Assembly: GCA_028819345.1 (NCBI GenBank)
Contig: JAPPLW010000059.1
Span: forward strand, 3,890-67,889
Reading direction: 5' to 3'
DNA length: 64,000 bases
Source of the DNA: a bacterium
GTDB lineage: Bacteria > Actinomycetota > Acidimicrobiia > Spongiisociales > ZC4RG35
Shown: positions 5,857-59,142 of the stretch, one piece after another
Layout of the letters: each line of letters starts with the position of its first letter
Numbering within the stretch: the stretch's first letter is position 1
Notes under the pieces: model-generated
Database searches by the model: none
Seen by the model: the letters and a program-made list of their open reading frames with translations, nothing else
What the model was told of the DNA's origin: nothing
Translations under genes and position numbers: made by a program

Positions 5857-7055
5857 GCGTGACCATTCTGCAAGCAAGGCAGGTCCTGACCGGCGGGGAC
5901 GATCCGCCCATTCACCGCGGCGGGGTCCGGGTGAGGGGGTCGAAGATCGTGGCCGTGGGCCGGGCCGATGACATCCGAGAGCCCGAGGACGAGGTTGTGG
6001 ATTTCGGCGAGGCAACGCTGCTTCCGGGGCTGATCGACTGCCACGAGCACCTCTCGGGGCACGACCGTTACGCGATCGGCGACCCGAGCGTGGTGGAGCC
6101 GCCCATGATGTACGCGCTGGTGGGCGTCTACCACACTCGCCGGCTGGTGCGCATCGGGGTGACGACCGCCCGGATCCCCGGAGCGCCGGGACACATCGAC
6201 CTGATGATCCGACGGGCCATCCGGGAGGGCTACCTGCTAGGTCCCAAGATGGTGTGCGCGGGTGAGTTGATCGTCATGACCGGCGGGCACGGCTCGATGT
6301 GGGGGGCGGAGGTGGACGGACCCTGGGAAGCCAAGAAGGCCGCCCGCGCCCAGCTCAAAGCCGGCGCCGACTTTGTGAAGATCGTCGCCTCGGGAGGGGT
6401 GGGGATCACTCGAGAGGGAGAGCTTCCCTCCCAGCCGGAGTTGTCAGTGGTGGAGATGGCCGCCGCGGCGGATGCGGTGCATTCGGCCGACCGAAGGATC
6501 ACCGCCCATGCCGACGGGGTTCCCGGAATCTCAAATGCCCTGGAGGCTGGGGTGGACTGCATCGAGCACGGGATCTACCTGAACGCCGACCATGCCAAGT
6601 TCATGGCCGACAACGGCGTTGCGTTGGTGCCCACCCTCTCCACCATGCAGGGCATCTATCACCACGGGATCGAGTACGGGATGCCCGAGACCTGGATCCC
6701 GATCGCCGAGGCGATCCTCGAACCTCACCTCGAGTCATTCCGCCACGCCCTCGAGGCGGGGGTCCACTTCGCGGCCGGCACCGACGGGTTCGGCGACATC
6801 GTGGACGAGATGATCATCTTCACCACCTTCGGGATCGACAACTACCGGGCCATCCAGTCGGCCACCCGGGACGCCGCGTTGGTCATTTCACCGCGTCCCG
6901 ACTTCGGGGTGCTGGAGGAGGGCAAGGCCGCCGACATTATCGCGGTGGACGGCGACCCGCTGGACGATCTGAATGCTCTCAGGTCGGTGGAGTTCGTAAT
7001 GATCGACGGAGAGGTGCTGGTCTCCAACGGTTCCGTAAGAGAGGAAGTGAGCTAA
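5853..7055 (+). CDS. Metal-dependent amidohydrolase family protein
   Basis: ATGA overlap with upstream ATPase. Sequence LPGLIDCHEHL and the overall fold point to the amidohydrolase superfamily (imidazolonepropionase/Xaa-Pro dipeptidase-like). Confidence 0.75.
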   Translation: MSVTILQARQVLTGGDDPPIHRGGVRVRGSKIVAVGRADDIREPEDEVVDFGEATLLPGLIDCHEHLSGHDRYAIGDPSVVEPPMMYALVGVYHTRRLVRIGVTTARIPGAPGHIDLMIRRAIREGYLLGPKMVCAGELIVMTGGHGSMWGAEVDGPWEAKKAARAQLKAGADFVKIVASGGVGITREGELPSQPELSVVEMAAAADAVHSADRRITAHADGVPGISNALEAGVDCIEHGIYLNADHAKFMADNGVALVPTLSTMQGIYHHGIEYGMPETWIPIAEAILEPHLESFRHALEAGVHFAAGTDGFGDIVDEMIIFTTFGIDNYRAIQSATRDAALVISPRPDFGVLEEGKAADIIAVDGDPLDDLNALRSVEFVMIDGEVLVSNGSVREEVS

Positions 7056-43143: not shown

Positions 43144-45561
43144 CTAGGCGCTGACCCTCACCCCGGGGACCGAGCCCAGGGAAGCCGTGTCGGGCTGGTT
43201 GAAGGGAACGTAAACCACGCCCGGTTCCAGGGTGGGATCGATCACCACGCCGGCTTGCAGGGATCCCGATGAGGATGTCACATCGACCGAGTCTCCCTCT
43301 CCCACGCCGAGGCGAGCGGCGTCGGTGGGGTGCAGGTGAGCGCCGGAACCCGGCGCCAGGGGCCTCAGGGAGGGGCTCTCTCTCATCATCACCCCGTCGT
43401 CGTACATGGTGCGGGCATAGTGGAGGGCCATCTCGCCGGGTCGGGGTGAGACCGAGGCCACGTGCGAGAACACCGGCACATAGCCGAGGTCGCCGCTTAC
43501 GACTATTCCGTCGCGGTCCTCCCAGTCCAGCCGCTCCCAGTTCACACCCCGGTAGATGTCGGCCAGTTCCTCCACTTCCTCGCTGATCTGCTGGGCGGAG
43601 ACCAAGCCCAGGTCCGCGCCCAGGCGGGCAGCCAGGTCCGAGAGGATCGCCCAGTCGGGCCGGCTCTGACCCGGTCCCGGAGTCAGGCGATTCACCTTGA
43701 GCACCCGGCCCTCGATGTTCGTGACCGTTCCCTCCACCTCCGAAAACCCCATGGCGGGGAACACCACGTCCGCCATGCGCGAGCTGTCGGTGAGGAACTG
43801 GTCGATCGCCACCACCAGGCCGGCGTTGGCGAGGGCGCGCCGGGCCAACTCCCCGTCGGGGACGTCGCGCACCGGGTCGGCGCCCACCAGCACCAGCGCT
43901 TCGATGTCTCCGGACTCGAGCCCCTCCAGGATCCCCCGGCAGTCGCGGCCGGAGGCAGCGGGCAGCTCACCCCACCGGTCGGCCAGCATCTGGGCGGCCA
44001 GGGTGCCCCGTTGAGCCCTCCCGGGCAGGAGGGCCGGGCTCAGGCCCATGTCCAGGGCGCCGAAGACGTTGCCCCGCCGCGCCAGGGGCAGGATGGTGGC
44101 GTCGGGAAGGGAGCGGACGAATGCTGCGGTGGCCTCGGCCAGATCGGGGCTCTCCCCATACCCGGGCCTGCCCAGGAGCGCCACCACCGGTCCCTTGGAC
44201 AGGACCTCTCTCGCTTCGGCCATCCTTCCGTTGCCGTCCATCAACTCCGAGAGCACTTCCCCGCCGCTGCCCGGCTGGTAGGTGACCTTCACCGAGGCCC
44301 GGTCGTCCAACCCCGTGCCCCGGGGATGGACCACCACCAGGCCCGCTCCCAGTTCCTGCGCCGCCCGACGCACCCGGAGGTACAGGGTGGGGTGCTCCTC
44401 CTTCAGATCGGGCCCCCAGACCAGGATCGAACCGGCGTTTTCCAGATCGGCGATGCGGGCCCGGTCCACCACGCCCGACAGCAATCGGGGATCGAGGCCG
44501 TCGTCCATCTGGCAGTCCACGCTGTTGGTGCCCACCGCCGACCGGAGGAACTTGGAGAAGGCGTAGGCGTCCTCGTTGGTCCCCCGCGCACCCCCCAGTC
44601 CCGCCACGGCTCGCCCGCCCGAACGAGAAATGACCTCCCCCAGGGCCTTACCGGCGTAATCGAGGGCCTCACCCCAGGAGACCTCCCGTAACTCGCCTTC
44701 CTCGTCGCGCACCAAGGGGGAGGTGAGGCGGGCCGGAGAGGCCACGTACTCGAACCCGAAGCGGCACTTGTCGGAGAGCCATCCCTGGTTGGTGGGCTCC
44801 GAGTCCACCCCCAGGATGCGCAGGAGCCGGTTCTGGCTCGACTGCAGGTTGATCCGGTCTCCGCTGGAACAGTGCTGGCAGGTTGACTCGACGAAGGTGA
44901 GGTCCCACGGCCGGGCGCGGAACCGGTAGGGAGTGGCGGTTAGCGCTCCCACCGGACAGATCTGGACCGTGTTGCCCGAGAAGTAGGAACGGAAGGGTTC
45001 GTCGGGGAAAGTGTTGACCTCGGTGTAGTTGCCCCTCTCCTGGAACTCGATGAGCGGATCGCCGGAGATCTCCTCGGAGAACCGGGTGCAGCGGGCGCAG
45101 AGAATGCAACGTTCCCGGTCCAGCATCACCAACTCGGAGATGGGGATGGGCTTTTCGAAGTGGCGCTTTTCCTCAACGAACCGGCTCTCCCCGGGGCCGT
45201 AGGCCATGGTCTGGTCCTGGAGGGGGCACTCGCCGGCGCGATCGCACACCGGACAGTCCAGGGGGTGGTTGATCAGCAGGAACTCCAACACCCCCTCCTG
45301 GGCCTTCTTCACCGTGGGGTTGGCGGTGTCCACCGTCATGCCGTCCGACACCGGGGTGGTGCAGGACGTGACCATCAGCGGGCCGCGGGGAGTCTCGATC
45401 TCCACCAGGCACATACGGCACATCCCCACCGGGTTCATACGGGGATGCCAGCAGAAGCGCGGGATGTACACCCCGTTGTCCTGGGCGGTCTTGATGAGGA
45501 GTTCCCCTGCTGGGGCGTTCACCTGGCGGCGGTTGATGGTTACTGTGACCGGCTCAGTCAA
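43144..45561 (-). CDS. nuoG: NADH-quinone oxidoreductase subunit G (75 kDa Fe-S subunit)
   Basis: N-terminal 2Fe-2S and 4Fe-4S Cys motifs (CRMC, HPLDCPVCDRAGECPLQ, CILCARCTRF, QICPVGALT) and the molybdopterin-like domain. About 805 aa, actinobacterial NuoG-like. Confidence 0.85.
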   Translation of the reverse strand: MTEPVTVTINRRQVNAPAGELLIKTAQDNGVYIPRFCWHPRMNPVGMCRMCLVEIETPRGPLMVTSCTTPVSDGMTVDTANPTVKKAQEGVLEFLLINHPLDCPVCDRAGECPLQDQTMAYGPGESRFVEEKRHFEKPIPISELVMLDRERCILCARCTRFSEEISGDPLIEFQERGNYTEVNTFPDEPFRSYFSGNTVQICPVGALTATPYRFRARPWDLTFVESTCQHCSSGDRINLQSSQNRLLRILGVDSEPTNQGWLSDKCRFGFEYVASPARLTSPLVRDEEGELREVSWGEALDYAGKALGEVISRSGGRAVAGLGGARGTNEDAYAFSKFLRSAVGTNSVDCQMDDGLDPRLLSGVVDRARIADLENAGSILVWGPDLKEEHPTLYLRVRRAAQELGAGLVVVHPRGTGLDDRASVKVTYQPGSGGEVLSELMDGNGRMAEAREVLSKGPVVALLGRPGYGESPDLAEATAAFVRSLPDATILPLARRGNVFGALDMGLSPALLPGRAQRGTLAAQMLADRWGELPAASGRDCRGILEGLESGDIEALVLVGADPVRDVPDGELARRALANAGLVVAIDQFLTDSSRMADVVFPAMGFSEVEGTVTNIEGRVLKVNRLTPGPGQSRPDWAILSDLAARLGADLGLVSAQQISEEVEELADIYRGVNWERLDWEDRDGIVVSGDLGYVPVFSHVASVSPRPGEMALHYARTMYDDGVMMRESPSLRPLAPGSGAHLHPTDAARLGVGEGDSVDVTSSSGSLQAGVVIDPTLEPGVVYVPFNQPDTASLGSVPGVRVSA

Positions 45562-46849
45562 AGGGACAGCCCCCCTGGTGGATGTGGGCCATCAGTTCAT
45601 CCTTGAAGTAGGAGGTGATGGCGAGAATCGGAGAGACGGCCGAGGGTCCCAGCGGGCAGATGGTGGTCATCCGGGGAGGCCAGGCCAGGCCGGGTGAGAT
45701 GTTGTCGGAGATGTCGAGCAGCATGTCCACGTCCACCTCCCGTCCCGCTCCCTCCTCTATGCGGCGCAGTATCCGCTCCAGCCAGGAACAGCCCTCGCGG
45801 CAGGGAGTGCACTGACCGCAGGACTCGTGGGCGAAGAAGCGCACCAGGCGCTCGGTGGCCCGCACGGTGCAGGTGGTCTCGTCCATGATCACCACCGCTC
45901 CCGAGCCCAGCATCGAACCCGCCTTGGCGGTGTCGTCGAGGGTCACCGGCAGGTCGAGATGATCGTCGGGGACGAACCACGGCGCCGAGGCGCCTCCGGG
46001 AATCCAGCACTTGAGCGCCCGGTCCCCGGGTATCCCTCCCGCCACCTCGTAGATCAACTCCCTCCAAGTGAGCCCCATGACCAACTCGTAGTTGCCGGGT
46101 CGGCGCACATGGCCGGAGATGGAGAACAGCCTGGTGCCCCGCGACCCGTCGGGCCCGATGGCGGCGAAGGCCTCCCCGCCGTTCTCGATGATCCAGGGGA
46201 CGTTGGCCAGGGTCTCCACGTTGTTGACGATGGTGGGCTGCATGTACAGGCCCTTGGCGGCCGGGTAGTAGGGGGGCTTCAGCCGGGGCTCGCCGCGCCG
46301 TCCCTCGAGGCTGTTCAAGAGGCCCGTCTCCTCCCCGCATATGTAGGCGCCCGCTCCCAGGTGAACGGTGACTTCCAGGTCGAACCCGCTACCCAGTATG
46401 TCGGAGCCCAGGTAACCGGCCGCGTAGGCGTCCTCGACCGCCTGCTGCACCCGCCGGGCCGAGCGGGGATACTCACCACGGATGTAGATGAAGGCATGGT
46501 TGGCGCCGTTGGCATACGAGGTGATGATCGTCCCCTCCAGCATCTGGTGGGGATCGCGTTCCATCAACTGGCGGTCCTTGAAAGTGCCCGGCTCGGACTC
46601 GTCCCCGTTCACCACCACGTACGCAGGTTTGCTGGGCGCCAGGAAACTCCACTTCAACCCGCAGGGGAAGCCCGCTCCTCCCCTGCCCCGCAGGTTGGCG
46701 GCCTTCACCTCCCCGGTCACCTCGTCGGGCGCCATCTCCAGGGCCTTGGCGAGCGCCTGATAGCCACCGGTCTCCAGGTATCGCTCCAGGGTGTGGCTGT
46801 CCGAGGGATGCCGGGTCATCCGGTCGGTGACGATGCTCGGAGCGCTCAC
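45554..46849 (-). CDS. nuoF: NADH-quinone oxidoreductase subunit F (51 kDa, FMN/NADH-binding)
   Basis: GRGGAGFPCGLKW FMN motif, C-terminal 4Fe-4S ESCGQCTPCREG. 8-nt overlap with nuoG. Start uncertain: GTG at 46849 or ATG at 46819. Confidence 0.85.
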   Translation of the reverse strand: MSAPSIVTDRMTRHPSDSHTLERYLETGGYQALAKALEMAPDEVTGEVKAANLRGRGGAGFPCGLKWSFLAPSKPAYVVVNGDESEPGTFKDRQLMERDPHQMLEGTIITSYANGANHAFIYIRGEYPRSARRVQQAVEDAYAAGYLGSDILGSGFDLEVTVHLGAGAYICGEETGLLNSLEGRRGEPRLKPPYYPAAKGLYMQPTIVNNVETLANVPWIIENGGEAFAAIGPDGSRGTRLFSISGHVRRPGNYELVMGLTWRELIYEVAGGIPGDRALKCWIPGGASAPWFVPDDHLDLPVTLDDTAKAGSMLGSGAVVIMDETTCTVRATERLVRFFAHESCGQCTPCREGCSWLERILRRIEEGAGREVDVDMLLDISDNISPGLAWPPRMTTICPLGPSAVSPILAITSYFKDELMAHIHQGGCPFD

Positions 46850-46853
46850 AAAC

Positions 46854-47513
46854 CTATCCGTCCTGGTCCTCCGCAGGACCCGAGACAGTGCCCAACGGGC
46901 CGAATGCCGGGTACGGGCCGAGTGCGGAGTCCCGGTCGAACGGACCCCAGTCAAAACTCCTCCTGCCACCGAACAGTTCCTGGCACTCGGCGCCGACGAT
47001 CGCCTCGGGCCGTGCGGTGCGAAGCCATCTGACCAGTTCCCGGGCGCTTTCGGCGGTCATCCCCTCTATCAACTCATAGTTCACGGTGACGGCCGGCGCT
47101 CCCCCGCATGCTCCTATGCACTCCACATGCTCCACCGAGATCAGTTCCTCGGGATCGGTCTCCCCCGCCGTCACGTCCGACTCGTCCTCTATGGCCCTCA
47201 GCACCTCGTCGGACCCCAGGAGCATGCAACTGATGGAGGTGCAGCAGGAGATCAGGTAGCGGCCGGGATCGTCCCGCTTGTACATGGTGTAGAAGGAAGC
47301 CACCGCCCTGACCTGGGCGGGGGTCAGGCCGACCAAAGAGGCCACCTCCCTCATGCCGTTGTCGGTGAGGTACCCTTCCTCGGCCATGGCCAGATAGAGG
47401 AGCGGCATGACCGCCGAGCGGGGCTCCGGGTACTGCCCGACGATCTCGGAAGCCCGGGCGCGAGCGGACTCGGACCATCCTCTCCTGACGCTCGGGGAGC
47501 GAATCTCCACCAT
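46854..47513 (-). CDS. nuoE: NADH-quinone oxidoreductase subunit E (24 kDa, 2Fe-2S)
   Basis: Thioredoxin-like 2Fe-2S motifs CTSISC...CIGACGGAP. 219 aa. Confidence 0.85.
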   Translation of the reverse strand: MVEIRSPSVRRGWSESARARASEIVGQYPEPRSAVMPLLYLAMAEEGYLTDNGMREVASLVGLTPAQVRAVASFYTMYKRDDPGRYLISCCTSISCMLLGSDEVLRAIEDESDVTAGETDPEELISVEHVECIGACGGAPAVTVNYELIEGMTAESARELVRWLRTARPEAIVGAECQELFGGRRSFDWGPFDRDSALGPYPAFGPLGTVSGPAEDQDG

Positions 47514-47611: not shown

Positions 47612-48703
47612 TCAGCGGATCACCAACTCGGGATGGGAGCGGATGCGGGGTCGAGCCTTCTCCACCGCTGCGGCCAGCCGGGAGAAAGCCTCGGCAGCCT
47701 CGCTCCGGGGAGCGGCCAGGGTGACCGGCTCTCCCCGGTCGGCGCCCTCTCGCATCAGGGGCAGCAAAGGTATCTGGGTCATCAGCGGGACCCCCACCTC
47801 GGTGGCGAGGGTTTCCCCGCCGCCTGATCCGAACAGTTCGTAGCGGGTCCCGTCGTCACCGGTGAACCACGACATGTTCTCCACCACGCCGATCACTTCC
47901 TGGTTGACCTGTGCCGCCATCAGCGCTGCCCGGCGCGCCACCCGCTGGGCGGTGGGTTGGGGCGTGGTTACCAACAAGACCTGGGAGCGGGGCAGGAAAT
48001 TCTGGATGGAGATGGCGATGTCGCCGGTCCCGGGAGGCATGTCGATCAGGAGGTAGTCGGGAGAGTCCCAGAAGACATCCTTCAGAAACTGCTCCAGCGC
48101 CTTGTGGAGCATCGGACCGCGCCAGATCACCGCCCGGTCCTCGGGCACGAAGTAGTCCATGGACATCACACTCACCTCATGGGCCCGGGGCGGGACGATT
48201 GATTGCTCGATCACCACCGGCGCCCGGTCTATTCCCAGCATCTGCGGGATGGAGAAACCCCAGATGTCGGCGTCGATCACACCCACCTTCCTCCCCAGTT
48301 CCCCTAGTGCGAGGGCCAGGTTGGTGGTGACCGAGGACTTCCCAACCCCGCCCTTTCCCGATGCCACCGCCACCACCCTGGTGCGCGACCCTGTCTCTCC
48401 GGGGCCGGGACCGGCCTCCCGCCGAACCCGGTCCATCATCTCCGCCCGCTCGGCGTCGCTCATCTCCTCGGTCCGCAACTCCAGGTCCGAGACCAGGTTG
48501 GCCGCCGCCTCCCGCAATCTGGCCGCCAACTCGGACAGCACCGGATAGTTCGGGACCGGAAGGGCAACGGTGACAGTCGGGGACCCGAACCTGCGAGCCT
48601 TTACCGAGCGGATCATGCCCAGCGAATGGAGAGAACGCTGCAGAAGCGGGTCTTGGACCGCCGAGAGAGCGGACCCCAACGCACCCTGGGAGACCATTAC
48701 CAA
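47612..48703 (-). CDS. apbC: Fe-S cluster carrier ATPase (Mrp/ApbC/NBP35 family)
   Basis: N-terminal DUF59-like region, deviant Walker A SGKGGVGKSS, and the CxxC-type conserved region of ParA/MinD-like ApbC. Confidence 0.85.
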   Translation of the reverse strand: MVMVSQGALGSALSAVQDPLLQRSLHSLGMIRSVKARRFGSPTVTVALPVPNYPVLSELAARLREAAANLVSDLELRTEEMSDAERAEMMDRVRREAGPGPGETGSRTRVVAVASGKGGVGKSSVTTNLALALGELGRKVGVIDADIWGFSIPQMLGIDRAPVVIEQSIVPPRAHEVSVMSMDYFVPEDRAVIWRGPMLHKALEQFLKDVFWDSPDYLLIDMPPGTGDIAISIQNFLPRSQVLLVTTPQPTAQRVARRAALMAAQVNQEVIGVVENMSWFTGDDGTRYELFGSGGGETLATEVGVPLMTQIPLLPLMREGADRGEPVTLAAPRSEAAEAFSRLAAAVEKARPRIRSHPELVIR

Positions 48704-48746
48704 TAACTATACTCCTGGGCATCGTCCAGTCAGCCAAGGTGTTGTG

Positions 48747-49457
48747 ATGTCCCAGGTAGTCGAGCAGCAGATCGCCGACTTGACCTCGGTGCTCGGAGAC
48801 CCCACCCGCCGCGCCATTTACATCGCCGCCCGGGAATCGTCGGAGCCGCTCACGGTGGGCAAGGTGGCCGAGTTGTTCGGCATTCACCGCAACCTGGCCC
48901 GCCACCACCTGGAGAAACTGACCGAAGAGGGTTACCTGAAAGTAGGGGATCAGCCCGCTCCCGCGGCAAGAAGAGCGGGAAGGCCCCCCAAGCACTATGA
49001 GTCCACCTCCCGCCACATCGAGATCACCTACCCGACCCTGAGATACGACCTGCTGGTGGAACTCCTGACCAGAATCGTGAATCGTATCTCTCCCCAGCAA
49101 CTCTCCGAGGTGGCCGAGGAAGTTGGACGCGAGTACGGCCAGGAGTTGGCCGACGAGATCGGCACGCCCGAGGACGCCGGATACAAGGAGGCGGTGCGGG
49201 GAGTCATGGGAGCGATGAGCGGGATGGGATTCGCCATGAACCCCGACTGGGACGGCGGCCGGCTGCTTACCTATCACTGTCCCTTTGGCGAAGCGGCCCT
49301 CAGCAATCCCGAAGTGGTCTGCTCGCTGGACCGGGGAATCATTTCCGGGCTCTTCGAGGCGATAGAGCGATGTTCGGAGACGGTCCTGCATCCCCACCGC
49401 GTCCGCCATGAGGACTGCGTGACGGAAATACCGGTCGAGATCACCGCGCGTTTTTGA
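48747..49457 (+). CDS. Winged-helix (ArsR-like) transcriptional regulator with Cys-rich C-terminal domain
   Basis: [47 protein letters not shown] is an ArsR-type wHTH. The C-terminal roughly 120 aa carry four Cys (YHCPF, VVCSLD, ERCSE, HEDC). ATG at 48747. Confidence 0.6.
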
Positions 49458-49467
49458 TCCGGCAAGC

Positions 49468-52134
<2,667 letters not shown>

Positions 52135-52165
52135 GACCACCTGCTCGAATAGCGAGCAAGCTCTT

Positions 52166-52201
52166 GGAGGGACAGCACATCAACTCGTGTCCTGTCCCTC
52201 C
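52166..52201. terminator. GC-rich hairpin (GGAGGGACAG ... CTGTCCCTCC) between convergent acnA and the membrane-protein gene; putative bidirectional terminator
   Basis: Perfect 10-bp outer stem with an extendable inner stem, lying in the 116-bp gap between convergent gene ends. No strong U-tract, which is common in high-GC actinobacteria. Confidence 0.45.
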
Positions 52202-52250
52202 GAAAGCTGAGACTTTGGTTGGGATCCCTTCCCAACCGCCATCCGGATCG

Positions 52251-52976
52251 TCAGGAAGCGCCGGCCAGGGAACCGCTCTTCCTGATCAATACTGCTCCGA
52301 ACACGATGATCCAGACCACTTGGACCAACGCTACAAGGTTGCCTATTAGGAAGACAACGAAGACGCTGTCGCCCAACAACGGCGCCAGGAGCAGGAGGAA
52401 CGACCCCACCGCCGCCGTGGCTATCACCAGGATGCCGGTCAGGAGATTGTTGGAACCCATCAGATTGGCATTCATCACCGAAGTGGCGAAGAGCGCCACC
52501 CCGGCCAGGTTGAGAATGGTGGCAAAGACCGAGAAGGATCCTTCCATCACCAGGAACATCACTGCGGTATCCAGGCCAGGGCCAGCGTCCAAGGCGCCGG
52601 CCGGGGCATAATTGATAGTGGTTGCCAGCAGGAGACCCATGGCAAACGAAGCCGTACGGAGCGCCAGGGCGACCCCGAGGATCATCAACCCGGCTTTCCG
52701 TAGGTGTGCCCGACCATCGTCTGACGACATGAATCGATCGACGCACCAAAACCCGAACAGCAGGCCGAAGGAGGCGATGAACCCCACGTCGACCAACAGT
52801 TGGACGAACGTGCCGTTGGACGCAGCTGACTGGACTCCTGCCTGCATCGCAGCCTGAGCGCCGTCGGCGTGGTCACTCGGGAAGCTTCCCGGCCGGCTTA
52901 CGCTCACCAGCAGATCCACCAGCGGGCCGATCAGCAGGAGCAACCCGGCGATTTTGGCTGTTTTTGCGGTAGTCAC
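52251..52976 (-). CDS. Integral membrane protein (DUF4386-like)
   Basis: Six predicted TM helices. GTG start at 52976 with AAGGAAAGAGG SD upstream; the ORF track extends to 53054. Confidence 0.55.
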   Translation of the reverse strand: MTTAKTAKIAGLLLLIGPLVDLLVSVSRPGSFPSDHADGAQAAMQAGVQSAASNGTFVQLLVDVGFIASFGLLFGFWCVDRFMSSDDGRAHLRKAGLMILGVALALRTASFAMGLLLATTINYAPAGALDAGPGLDTAVMFLVMEGSFSVFATILNLAGVALFATSVMNANLMGSNNLLTGILVIATAAVGSFLLLLAPLLGDSVFVVFLIGNLVALVQVVWIIVFGAVLIRKSGSLAGAS

Positions 52977-53237
52977 TTTATAAACCTCTTTCCTTGTCCG
53001 CTTTCCGTGGCCTGACGGCGCATTCGGCGGTCGAAACCAGGCGCAGCCTTTCAATGAATGTTACACCGGGGACCTCATTCCCCGCGGGCGCAACCACCGC
53101 CATTGAAAGGGAATTTGGTCCAGGAAGGCGTGGCGGCGCCATGGGCCCTTGTGAGCCGGCCGGACCAAGCCTATTGTGGGGAGTTGAATCTCAGCTGAGG
53201 AAACCCGCCCATGCTGAGTCGCAAAGGAGTGAAGGTA

Positions 53238-56704: not shown

Positions 56705-58027
56705 TTACGCGACCCCGCGCAGTCCTCCGGGGCGGTTGAACTGCATCTCCTCGGTTGACCCGGCCAGCGCCAGCGTCGAGGCGCGGCCGCCGGTCACAAC
56801 CTGCGTCACCTGGTCGAAATAGCCGGCGCCGACCTCAGCCTGGTGTCGGATGGCGGTATAGCCATGGACCTCGGAGGAGAACTCCTGGCTCTGAAGCCTG
56901 CTGTAGGCGGCCATGCCCTCTGCGTTGTAAGCCCGGGCGAGTTCGAAGGTCTGGTGGTTCACCAGATGCCAGCCGGCCAGGGTGATGAACTGGAACCTGT
57001 ATCCCAACTCGGCGAGTTCGTCCTGGAACCGCGTGATCTGGCTCTGGCTGAGGCGCCGCTCCCAGTTGAACGAAGGCGAGCAGTTGTAGGCCAAGAGCTT
57101 CCCGGGGTACCTGGCATGGATGGCTTCGGCGAAACGCGCCGCTTCCTCGAGGTCGGGTTCGGAGGTCTCGCACCACAGGATGTCGGCGTACGGCGCGTAG
57201 GCCAGGGCGCGGGCAGTGGCGGCCTCCATCCCACCTCGCACCACGTGGTATCCCTCGGCGGTCCGCTCCCCGGTGAGGAAGCTGTGATCGCGATCGTCAA
57301 TGTCGCTCATCAGCAGCGTCGCGTCCCTGGCGTCGGTCCTGGCTATCAGGACGGTTGGGACATCCAGCACGTCCGCCGCCAACCGGGCAGCGGTCAGGGT
57401 GCGGATGAACTGGGAGATCGGCACCAAGACCTTGCCTCCCATGTGCCCGCACTTCTTCTCCGACGCCAACTGGTCCTCGAAGTGGACCCCTGCCGCGCCG
57501 GCCTCGATCATGGATTTCATCAACTCGAAGCTGTGAATCGGACCGCCGAACCCGGCCTCGGCATCGGCCACGATCGGCGCCAACCAATGGACACCGCGGT
57601 CACCGTTCATGTGAGCGATCTGATCGGCGCGGATCAAGGCGTTGTTGATCCGCTTGACCAGCTTCGGCGCACTGTCCGACGGGTAGAGACTCTGGTCCGG
57701 GTAGGTCTGTCCGGCAGCGTTGGCGTCGGCGGCCACCTGCCAGCCACTCAGGTAGATAGCTTTTAGCCCTGCCTTCACCATCTGCACCGCCTGGGAGCCG
57801 GTCAAGGCTCCGAAAGTGCGGACGAGCGGTTCGTCGTTGAGCAGACCCCACAGCCGCTCCGCCCCGGTCTGGGCGAGGGTGTGTTCGATCTTGAGTGAGC
57901 CGCGTAGCGCCAGCATGTCGGCACCGGAGTAGGGGCGCTCAATGCCCCTCCACCGTTCCTCCATGTCCCAGCGGATCTGGGGGTCTCCTACTACAGCCGA
58001 ATACCCGTTGTGGCCATTGATCGACAT
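56705..58027 (-). CDS. aceA: Isocitrate lyase
   Basis: KKCGHMGGK catalytic signature and full-length ICL sequence. ATG at 58027 lies 9 nt after AAAGGAGG (the alternative ATG at 58033 is only 3 nt after it). Confidence 0.9.
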
Positions 58028-58227: not shown

Positions 58228-59142
58228 ATGGAACTGACACAACTCCAATCTTTTCTCGAAGCGGCCAGATCGGGCAGCTTTCGCAGCGCCGCCCGAGCGC
58301 TGTATGTGAGCCAGCCATCGCTGAGCGGGAGGATCAGGGCCCTTGAGCGGGAGTTGCGGGCTCCGTTATTCCATCGCCTGGGGAGGGGCGTGCGGCTGAC
58401 CGAGGCCGGTGAGGCCTTCCGGCCGTTTGTCGAGCAGGCGCTGGAAACGCTCGACCTGGGGACCGAAGCTGTCCGCAACAGGCAGGAAACCCAAAGAAAG
58501 ACCATCACCATCGGCTCGGCCCGGATCATTGGGACCTACATACTCCCGCCAACCCTGGAGCGATTCCAGCAACGCTTTCCACAGGTCTCGGCTCGCATAC
58601 GCACCGGGAGGTCTTCCGATGTGATCGAGATGGTGGCGAACGGGGTGGTTGACATCGGCCTGTCAAGGGGTATCTACCATCCCGATGTCCTCTCCATACA
58701 CCTCTACGACGAGCCGATCGTGCTCGCCACCTACCCCGATCATCCTTTCGCAAGGAGGGGACATGCCTACATATCGGAGGTTGCCAGACAACCTCTCATC
58801 CTTTACGACCCGAGTTCGACGTACTTCCTGCTGATCAACCAAGCCTGCCGCGAGGCGGGGATCGTGCCCCAGATCGAGACGATGCTCGACAACATCGAGG
58901 CCACCAAGCGCATGGTGGCTCTGGGACTGGGCATCTCCTTCCTGCCACACAGCGCCATCCTCACCGAAATCGAGCAGGAAACGCTTCGACATATCGAGTT
59001 GAAGGGCGACCAGCAGGTCCATCTGCCCACCCATGTGCTGGTGCGCAGGGCCCAGCACTACAGCCCTCCCCTGCTCGACTTCCTGACATTGCTGAGGGAG
59101 ATCTACGGATGCGACATCTCCGAGATCGTCGAGAGTTCATAG
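58228..59142 (+). CDS. LysR family transcriptional regulator
   Basis: N-terminal HTH LTQLQSFLEAARSGSFRSAARALYVSQPSLSGRIRALE plus a LysR substrate-binding domain. Divergent from aceA. Confidence 0.85.
   Translation: MELTQLQSFLEAARSGSFRSAARALYVSQPSLSGRIRALERELRAPLFHRLGRGVRLTEAGEAFRPFVEQALETLDLGTEAVRNRQETQRKTITIGSARIIGTYILPPTLERFQQRFPQVSARIRTGRSSDVIEMVANGVVDIGLSRGIYHPDVLSIHLYDEPIVLATYPDHPFARRGHAYISEVARQPLILYDPSSTYFLLINQACREAGIVPQIETMLDNIEATKRMVALGLGISFLPHSAILTEIEQETLRHIELKGDQQVHLPTHVLVRRAQHYSPPLLDFLTLLREIYGCDISEIVESS

Follow-up and report, generated by a model that had tools for sequence, protein, structure and literature searches.

The 64,000-nucleotide (nt) stretch of contig JAPPLW010000059.1 analysed here (referred to below as the window) contains a gene for a regulator of 236 amino acids (aa) at positions 48747..49457 on the plus strand, stop codon included. 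On sequence comparison this regulator is a member of the SufR/ArnR-like family (COG2345) and belongs to its 'CPF' branch. The gene lies in the interval 48704-49467, the entire space separating the two neighbouring genes: a divergent Mrp/ApbC-like gene upstream and the aconitase gene acnA downstream, after a 10-bp gap. Both neighbours had been named in an initial annotation of this DNA and were borne out by Pfam and NCBIfam searches. The open reading frame (ORF) on this strand spans 48570-49457. The ATG at 48747 is most likely the true start, because the homologues are about 236 aa long and align from M1, and because the GC content by codon position is gene-like only from 48747 onward (0.66/0.44/0.79, as in the neighbouring genes, vs 0.56/0.59/0.64 in the extension 48570-48746). 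Database searches returned 721 homologues at E<=1e-3 with 53-95% identity and 47 invariant residues; the ORF is far from chance and the gene is real. An antisense ORF of 449 aa (48177-49526, minus strand) covers the whole gene. It is a high-GC artefact: its GC by codon position (0.78/0.55/0.60) does not follow the pattern of a gene. The window has a match in an Acidimicrobiia metagenome-assembled genome, GCA_028820275.1.

Pfam gave a single match, an N-terminal HTH_20/ArsR-type winged helix at aa 16-62 (48792..48932, plus strand; E 2e-8), and the best PDB sequence match was the ArsR repressor 6j0e (E 1.6e-6), in line with the ArsR-like winged helix described in the initial annotation. Nothing beyond this helix-turn-helix (HTH) was recognised in the regulator by Pfam, NCBIfam or PDB sequence searches. 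A sub-threshold match to TIGR02702, the NCBIfam model of cyanobacterial SufR (E 0.013; 15.2 bits vs a cut-off of 178.8), reached past the HTH and was used as a lead, not as evidence. We then compared an alignment of 117 regulator homologues with 16 curated SufR sequences from the supplementary dataset of a preprint of December 2025, which reports the structure, by cryo-electron microscopy (cryo-EM), of SufR from Mycobacterium tuberculosis and defines COG2345 as the 'SufR-like' family (10.64898/2025.12.26.696629). The two profiles matched over their full length in hhalign (Prob 99.2%, E 2.3e-19, 207 columns). C178, C192, D195 and C224 of the regulator were paired with C179, C192, E195 and C220 of M. 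tuberculosis SufR (paper numbering C179/C192/E195/C220, equivalent to C203/C216/E219/C244 of CCP44219.1), GRP with GRP, and RHH with RRH.

The features given for SufR-like proteins are a winged HTH (wHTH) with a long wing bearing a GRP AT-hook, and an RRH motif in helix alpha-3; SufR itself continues into a dimerisation domain and a sensory domain that holds a [4Fe-4S] cluster on C179, C192, E195 and C220 (10.64898/2025.12.26.696629). Each of these elements has a counterpart in the regulator (all on the plus strand). The recognition-helix motif R52-H53-H54 (48900-48908) is part of an invariant A51-R52-H53-H54 and is aligned by hhalign to the RRH of SufR, for which the preprint gives a DNA-contact role. 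G78-R79-P80 (48978..48986), aligned with the SufR G-R-P and thus the probable AT-hook equivalent, is surrounded in the AlphaFold model by a long loop (aa 67-83) between strands 64-66 and 84-86. Two long helices at aa 100-138 (49044..49160) are the predicted dimerisation domain, judging from AlphaFold secondary structure and the hhalign match to the corresponding SufR region as the preprint defines it. For the sensory domain at the C-terminus a [4Fe-4S] site is predicted (49278..49418), made up of the putative ligands C178 (49278-49280), C192 (49320-49322), D195 (49329-49331) and C224 (49416-49418).

Conservation follows these motifs. Among 121 aligned homologues C178, C192, C224, D195, H177, A51-R52-H53-H54 and G78-R79-P80 are invariant or nearly so. 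We also collected 80 related loci in one scan of species-representative genomes, with regulators 98% to 34% identical to the query; all are from Acidimicrobiia, with a few doubtful bin labels, and their genes were called with a GC3-based filter. Loci with at least 45% identity are referred to as the closer clade, and those of Ilumatobacteraceae, Microthrixaceae, Iamiaceae and Aquihabitans as the distant clade. The regulator with 98% identity is that of L012, on the complete chromosome OZ242375.1, and L059 comes from the cultivable relative Aquihabitans sp. McL0605. The set RHH, GRP, HCPF, C-x2-D-R-G and C-x-T is retained throughout the 80 loci, down to 34% identity, and GRP is invariant both there and in the 117 sequences. 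M. tuberculosis SufR matches distant-clade orthologues directly in tblastn (E 4e-8). The initial annotation had counted four C-terminal cysteines, in CP, VC, RC and DC contexts. All four are present, at 178, 192, 209 and 224, but C209 (49371-49373) is not conserved (20 of 121 homologues), so that the ligand set comprises three cysteines and a conserved aspartate. D195 is invariant in the 117-sequence alignment, with Glu instead in a few Ilumatobacteraceae loci. At the fourth-ligand position the nearest 115 full-length representatives carry 47 D, 26 N, 11 E, 7 C and 5 H, Asp being the commonest; Asp is also among the natural residues listed for this position (E/H/N/D/C; 10.64898/2025.12.26.696629). 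Four orthologues lack the equivalent of C224 and the C-terminal end (L051 and L063, regulators at about 6001-6660; L052, from 5384; L055, from 2416), and those of L051, L052 and L063 additionally lack the equivalent of C192. These four may be cluster-less derivatives. In L051, L052 and L055 an inverted acnA lies downstream of the regulator.

The AlphaFold model of the regulator (mean pLDDT 75, pTM 0.52) shows the expected order of elements and puts C192 and D195 on one helix, as in SufR. In Foldseek searches against PDB the N-terminal part matched ArsR/SmtB structures and the C-terminal part best matched TRAPPC3/Bet3 (6aq3, E 9e-4; 1wc8; 7yh3). TRAPPC3/Bet3 proteins are the reported structural neighbours of SufR (10.64898/2025.12.26.696629) and also of ArnR. 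For the C-terminal domain, the structure prediction that had been proposed gave, at moderate confidence, a fold like that reported for the SufR/ArnR sensory domain. The domain is no unknown one; it is the COG2345 SufR-like dimerisation and sensory region, with a 99.2% profile match and a reported cryo-EM structure. One orthologue from Ilumatobacteraceae matches Pfam MetOD1 above threshold. By pairwise blastp in a small panel, the regulator is closest to Ilumatobacter coccineus BAN04159 (30%), M. tuberculosis NP_217134 (26%) and Corynebacterium glutamicum ArnR (23%, E 1e-7), while the match to SufR is weaker than these three (24% identity, E 2e-4). It is assigned to the SufR/ArnR-like family because of the profile match, the aligned ligand and DNA-contact motifs, and its closeness to ArnR and to COG2345 paralogues.

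This assignment corrects the public labels 'ArsR family transcriptional regulator' and 'helix-turn-helix domain-containing protein'. An ordinary ArsR/SmtB metalloregulator for arsenite or Zn/Cd with an extended tail would account for those records and for the best Pfam and PDB sequence matches, which are to ArsR-type HTHs. We regard it as highly improbable. The NF033788 metalloregulator model scores 28.1 bits vs a cut-off of 55, and the profile comparison contradicts such an identity. ArsR/SmtB metalloregulators are about 100-125 aa long with metal sites in the HTH dimer; the regulator is 236 aa, twice the usual length, and its conserved cysteines all lie in the C-terminal SufR-type domain. 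No resistance, metal-efflux or metal-uptake genes adjoin it.

SufR (M. tuberculosis Rv1460, Streptomyces avermitilis, cyanobacteria) is the [4Fe-4S] repressor of the suf operon and belongs to COG2345. The regulator has in common with it the wHTH with the GRP AT-hook, the dimerisation domain, the Bet3/TRAPPC3-like sensory domain, three cluster cysteines, a carboxylate three residues past the second Cys and a His before the first. It differs in overall sequence (identity about 23-24%), in Asp for the strictly conserved Glu, in RHH for RRH and AGRP for RGRP, in failing the NCBIfam SufR model, and in its position, which is not beside suf genes but paired with the Mrp/ApbC-like gene. It is therefore not SufR sensu stricto, which was rejected on three of these counts (no suf genes nearby, TIGR02702 failed, Asp for Glu). 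The full-length homology and the alignment of all ligand positions could still be explained if it were the organism's SufR orthologue relocated from the suf operon, repressing sufBCDS elsewhere, with the Mrp/acnA setting incidental. We consider such a relocation unlikely, since tblastn with the E. coli proteins detected neither SufB nor SufD in the window or in the 80 related loci, the TIGR02702 score falls well short of its cut-off, Asp stands at a position where SufR strictly conserves Glu, and in blastp ArnR and Rv2618-type paralogues come out nearer to the regulator than SufR does. The Mrp-like pairing, kept down to 34% identity, argues that the neighbourhood is not incidental. Acidimicrobiales also own a separate Glu-type SufR (P0360, 59% identical to I. 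coccineus BAN02115). This canonical SufR (BAN02115 and 262 relatives) is divergent from fdx-sufB-sufC-sufD-DUF59-mrp in locus L093, and it co-occurs with the regulator at the class or family level only, no contig being common to both match lists. The P0360 SufR locus (L093, 731-7639) includes a second Mrp-like paralogue of 433 aa, in which the DUF59 Cys is kept and CXXC is absent.

Of the characterised relatives in the small panel, blastp puts ArnR (C. glutamicum NCgl1138/cg1340) nearest to the regulator; it is an NO-responsive [4Fe-4S] repressor that acts on narKGHJI and hmp. Both proteins have 'CPF' at the first Cys, similarly placed cysteines (178/192/224 vs 179/193/223 in ArnR) and a non-Cys fourth ligand, which is His in ArnR (C-A-I-H) where the regulator subfamily has Asp. 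ArnR controls genes for nitrate respiration and for the detoxification of NO; within +/-10 kb of the regulator neither nar nor hmp genes were found. Identity with ArnR proper was rejected on the Asp and on this neighbourhood. The best named matches, the paralogues NP_217134 and BAN04159, share the pattern (N/H)CPF ... C-x-x-(N/H/D)-x-G and have Asn or His as the fourth-ligand residue.

Two further groups are comparable in part. Rrf2-family sensors (IscR, NsrR, RsrR) also combine a winged helix with cluster-dependent DNA binding and one non-Cys ligand, which is Asp in Streptomyces coelicolor NsrR. They are another family with another sensory fold, and the Rrf2 Pfam match of the regulator covers the HTH only (20 bits vs a cut-off of 30). 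In corynebacteria aconitase is regulated by AcnR (TetR-type) and RipA; AcnR is not known to be an Fe-S sensor. The likeness to these is one of theme, a regulator gene beside acn. The fold is unrelated to that of AcnR, as had been pointed out initially for the C-terminal domain: no TetR_N or other TetR domain appears among the Pfam and NCBIfam matches.

We found 721 homologues at E<=1e-3 with the query, 6974 with the Ilumatobacteraceae orthologue and 4015 among representatives. The homologues obtained with the Ilumatobacteraceae orthologue include thousands from metagenomes. The regulator is a distinct, uncharacterised subfamily of a known family, found across the class Acidimicrobiia, and not a new kind. 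The preprint describes everything in COG2345 apart from SufR and ArnR as uncharacterised (10.64898/2025.12.26.696629). In full-text searches COG2345 appeared as a family only in this preprint (one other paper with the term concerns the DtxR regulon), and no SufR-like regulator was found tied to Mrp/ApbC or aconitase. A protein search with the Ilumatobacteraceae orthologue returned near-identical proteins from Ilumatobacteraceae metagenome-assembled genomes (MAGs) only, with no I. coccineus entry.

The gene divergent from the regulator (47612..48697, minus strand, with an ATG start, or to 48703 with a TTG start) encodes an Mrp/ApbC/NUBPL-family P-loop ATPase with an N-terminal DUF59 (Pfam ParA/NUBPL, 3e-86; also NCBIfam). 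A divergent Mrp/ApbC-like gene was found in 76 of the 80 related loci, and the remaining four are truncated upstream. It is the constant partner of the regulator and probably also its main target. The initial annotation had taken all the neighbours to be Fe-S proteins and had focused on acnA. Neither point held in full: the Mrp-like neighbour has no cysteines at all, and acnA follows the regulator in the closer clade only. In all 78 regulator-linked orthologues examined (L004-L091) the CXXC cluster-bridging motif is missing, replaced by ENMSWFTGDDGxRYELFG, and the DUF59 Cys is replaced too (ALPVPNYPV). Three loci with the Acidimicrobiia-type synteny (L027, L028 and L070) belong to MAGs that carry the label 'Acidobacteriota' or 'Bifidobacterium sp.', probably through binning or labelling errors.

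The downstream gene acnA (aconitate hydratase A, 49468..52134, plus strand; NCBIfam PRK09277, 1323 bits) begins 10 bp past the regulator stop (gap 49458-49467) and is probably co-transcribed with the regulator; a control of acnA by the regulator would follow from this spacing only. About 28 of 38 closer-clade genome loci have acnA downstream of the regulator in the same orientation, at a distance of 80-500 nt in most of them and of 8-10 nt only in the query's own subclade (L012-L014, L016, L035). Some of the spacers between the regulator and acnA contain short tandem repeats (L028 at about 6705-6750, L033 at about 6702-6750, L041 at about 6690-6720; examples are TTTTAGG x3-4, GATCGGT/AGTCGGT x7 and GTACTTG x2-3). 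The usual order behind acnA in the closer clade is an AhpC/TSA redoxin gene and then a sortase gene. In L004 (11524-12087), and likewise in about 18 loci of this clade, the redoxin gene begins 1-2 nt after acnA and the sortase gene is convergent; both are absent from the query's subclade. In about 14 distant-clade loci a class-V aminotransferase gene of the cysteine-desulfurase family stands directly downstream of the regulator, in the place of acnA in the query (for example L056 6679-7812 and L057 6861-8000, with about 12 further loci; Pfam Aminotran_5, 1e-47 to 5e-62). Fe-S metabolism is the theme that the loci share in general; the tie to aconitase is particular to the query's lineage.

On the other side of the window locus, nuoE-, nuoF- and nuoG-like genes (43144..47513, minus strand; Pfam of called genes) share the strand of the Mrp-like gene, lie 3' of it and may be part of the divergent transcription unit. 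Among the loci, only those of the query's subclade (L012-L016) have them in this place. This nuoE/F/G-like module is stand-alone, with no other nuo genes adjacent. Past acnA and convergent to it is an ORF for an apparently membrane protein of 241-267 aa (52251-53054, minus strand), with no Pfam family and found in the query's subclade only. CoA-transferase and acyl-CoA dehydrogenase genes are located between acnA and an isocitrate lyase gene (56705-58027, minus strand) 4.5 kb downstream of it, which has a divergent LysR-type regulator gene (about 58228-59142, plus strand). An Rfam search of the window found nothing.

The spacer between the regulator and the Mrp-like gene is 43 bp with the TTG start and 49 bp with the ATG start of the public gene call. 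Composition, conservation and a promoter scan define an intergenic control region (48698..48746) of 49% GC in a window of 65% GC. It contains overlapping divergent -10 boxes, TATACT at 48708-48713 (plus) and TATAGT at 48711-48706 (minus), the sole match of the promoter scan in 48550-52400, together with a -35-like CTGACT of the Mrp-like gene (48733-48728, minus), conserved in the query's subclade, and a Shine-Dalgarno sequence AAGGTG of the regulator (about 48735-48740, plus). From the -10/-35 position, the mRNA of the Mrp-like gene is predicted to be leaderless or nearly so, beginning at about 48697-48700; the predicted transcript start of the regulator is near 48720. The subclade keeps a spacer of 49 nt with the A/T-rich AATAACTATAC, which supplies the overlapping -10 boxes, and AACTATA and AGTCAG are conserved among L001/L015/L016. 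One dimer bound at the back-to-back -10 boxes (48706-48713) could block both promoters.

Candidate operators were found in the relatives. In the distant clade 33 of 43 loci have a box gaATTtccaCTAYgg..ATAGGTAgAATAcc, placed 3-5 nt before the GTG or ATG start of the regulator and absent from the rest of 420 kb; in L071 it reads ATTACCACTACGCAGATAGGTAGAAT, about 70 bp upstream of position 6001. The box forms a dyad, ATT-N4-CTAY-N4-RTAG-N4-AAT (ATT-N4-CTAY-N4-RTAGGTANAAT), which overlaps the TAGAAT -10 box of the regulator, and this position implies a leaderless regulator mRNA in the distant clade. Its layout, a dyad between A/T tracts, resembles the SufR site in the M. tuberculosis PsufR promoter, AATTTT-N18-AAAAT (10.64898/2025.12.26.696629). 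The closer clade has a related box immediately next to the ribosome-binding site of the Mrp-like gene, and after this box the palindrome AACTATAGTT. With one mismatch at most, 30 of 39 loci contain the palindrome, and the rest of 398 kb does not. This palindrome was not accepted as an operator, being inseparable from a role as overlapping divergent -10 boxes. Sites similar to AACTATAGTT are not enriched in the window (5 vs 2.3 expected).

The two characterised members of the family, SufR and ArnR, are experimentally shown [4Fe-4S] holo-repressors, and loss or nitrosylation of the cluster abolishes their DNA binding. By homology and analogy with them, the regulator is probably a dimeric, [4Fe-4S]-dependent repressor of the back-to-back promoters. 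Each subunit would consist of the ArsR-type winged helix with the GRP AT-hook on its long wing, the two-helix dimerisation domain and the Bet3/V4R-like sensory domain, which would carry one [4Fe-4S] cluster on C178, C192, C224 and the carboxylate of D195. The cluster-bound form would occupy the promoter region shared with the Mrp/ApbC-like gene and repress both units. Loss or nitrosylation of the cluster (on Fe-S shortage, O2/reactive oxygen species (ROS) or NO) would release the DNA. The Mrp-like ATPase would then be induced, here perhaps with nuoEFG, and so would the regulator's own operon, which in the query's lineage includes aconitase A. The initial suggestion of a redox or Fe-S status sensor agrees with this homology and with the four aligned ligand positions. 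Induction of E. coli AcnA under oxidative stress is a precedent, and the redoxin gene behind acnA in relatives is consistent with an oxidative-stress theme.

Several points weigh against this repressor model. We infer [4Fe-4S] and DNA binding by members of the subfamily from homology only, and the AlphaFold model is of only moderate confidence (pTM 0.52). In M. tuberculosis SufR the E195D substitution abolished the cluster (10.64898/2025.12.26.696629). Asp as a working cluster ligand cannot be assumed, but it is the commonest residue at this position (47/115) and is allowed according to the preprint. The link to aconitase is not general: the distant clade lacks acnA or has it inverted, and with a gap of 80-500 nt acnA probably has its own promoter in most relatives. 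A role of the Mrp-like partner in Fe-S delivery or as a carrier is doubtful, because it has no cysteines and no CXXC. In the window itself, no inverted repeat was found in 48660-48790, the conserved boxes of the relatives are absent and the dyad box is missing from the query's subclade as a whole; the two promoters by themselves are enough to account for the conserved intergenic bases of this subclade.

The E195D result would also fit a sensor without Fe-S, in which the Cys3-Asp site binds Zn or another metal structurally, or acts as a thiol-disulfide switch, and oxidants or metals are sensed directly. Cys3-Asp and Cys3-His are typical Zn sites, TRAPPC3 is Zn-bound at the equivalent place (7YH3), and a redoxin gene comes after acnA in relatives. 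SufR and ArnR, however, both use the same three cysteines for [4Fe-4S], the conserved theme of the loci is Fe-S biogenesis (Mrp-like DUF59 ATPase, cysteine-desulfurase-family gene), and metal-efflux or uptake genes are not adjacent. A cluster-free sensor has a small though real chance of being correct. Slightly less probable is the opposite polarity, with the holo-protein activating acnA, and perhaps nuoEFG, when Fe-S is plentiful, or with the apo-form binding DNA. Aconitase and NuoEFG are heavy Fe-S consumers whose expression with ample clusters would be logical, and no operator is seen at a repressing position in the window. This is countered by the holo-repression by both SufR and ArnR, by the dyad of the relatives, which, in the regulator promoter, overlaps both the -10 box and the spacer and so takes a repressing position, and by the conserved targets, which are of a biogenesis type normally induced by cluster shortage. 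On this evidence, we favour holo-repression of the shared promoter region by a [4Fe-4S]-bound dimer.

SufR-like (COG2345) proteins have only recently been seen as a large family of Fe-S factors, with two known regulons, suf and nar/hmp. As a tentative further step, the regulator may be a second dedicated Fe-S-status sensor of Acidimicrobiia beside the canonical SufR, one with a Cys3-Asp cluster that tunes downstream Fe-S homeostasis and not the SUF scaffold, and in which Asp might set the selectivity for a signal, be it NO, O2 or cluster supply, apart from that of Glu-type SufR or His-type ArnR. If this is true, it would target the Mrp/DUF59 ATPase that has no cysteines, in some clades also an enzyme of the cysteine-desulfurase family, and in the query's lineage aconitase and NuoEFG. 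The locus makes two questions testable, namely how the non-Cys ligand tunes cluster reactivity and what the cysteine-free actinobacterial Mrp/DUF59 proteins do. For the family, it defines a third subfamily, environmentally abundant, with a conserved candidate target and a natural Cys3-Asp set of putative ligands.

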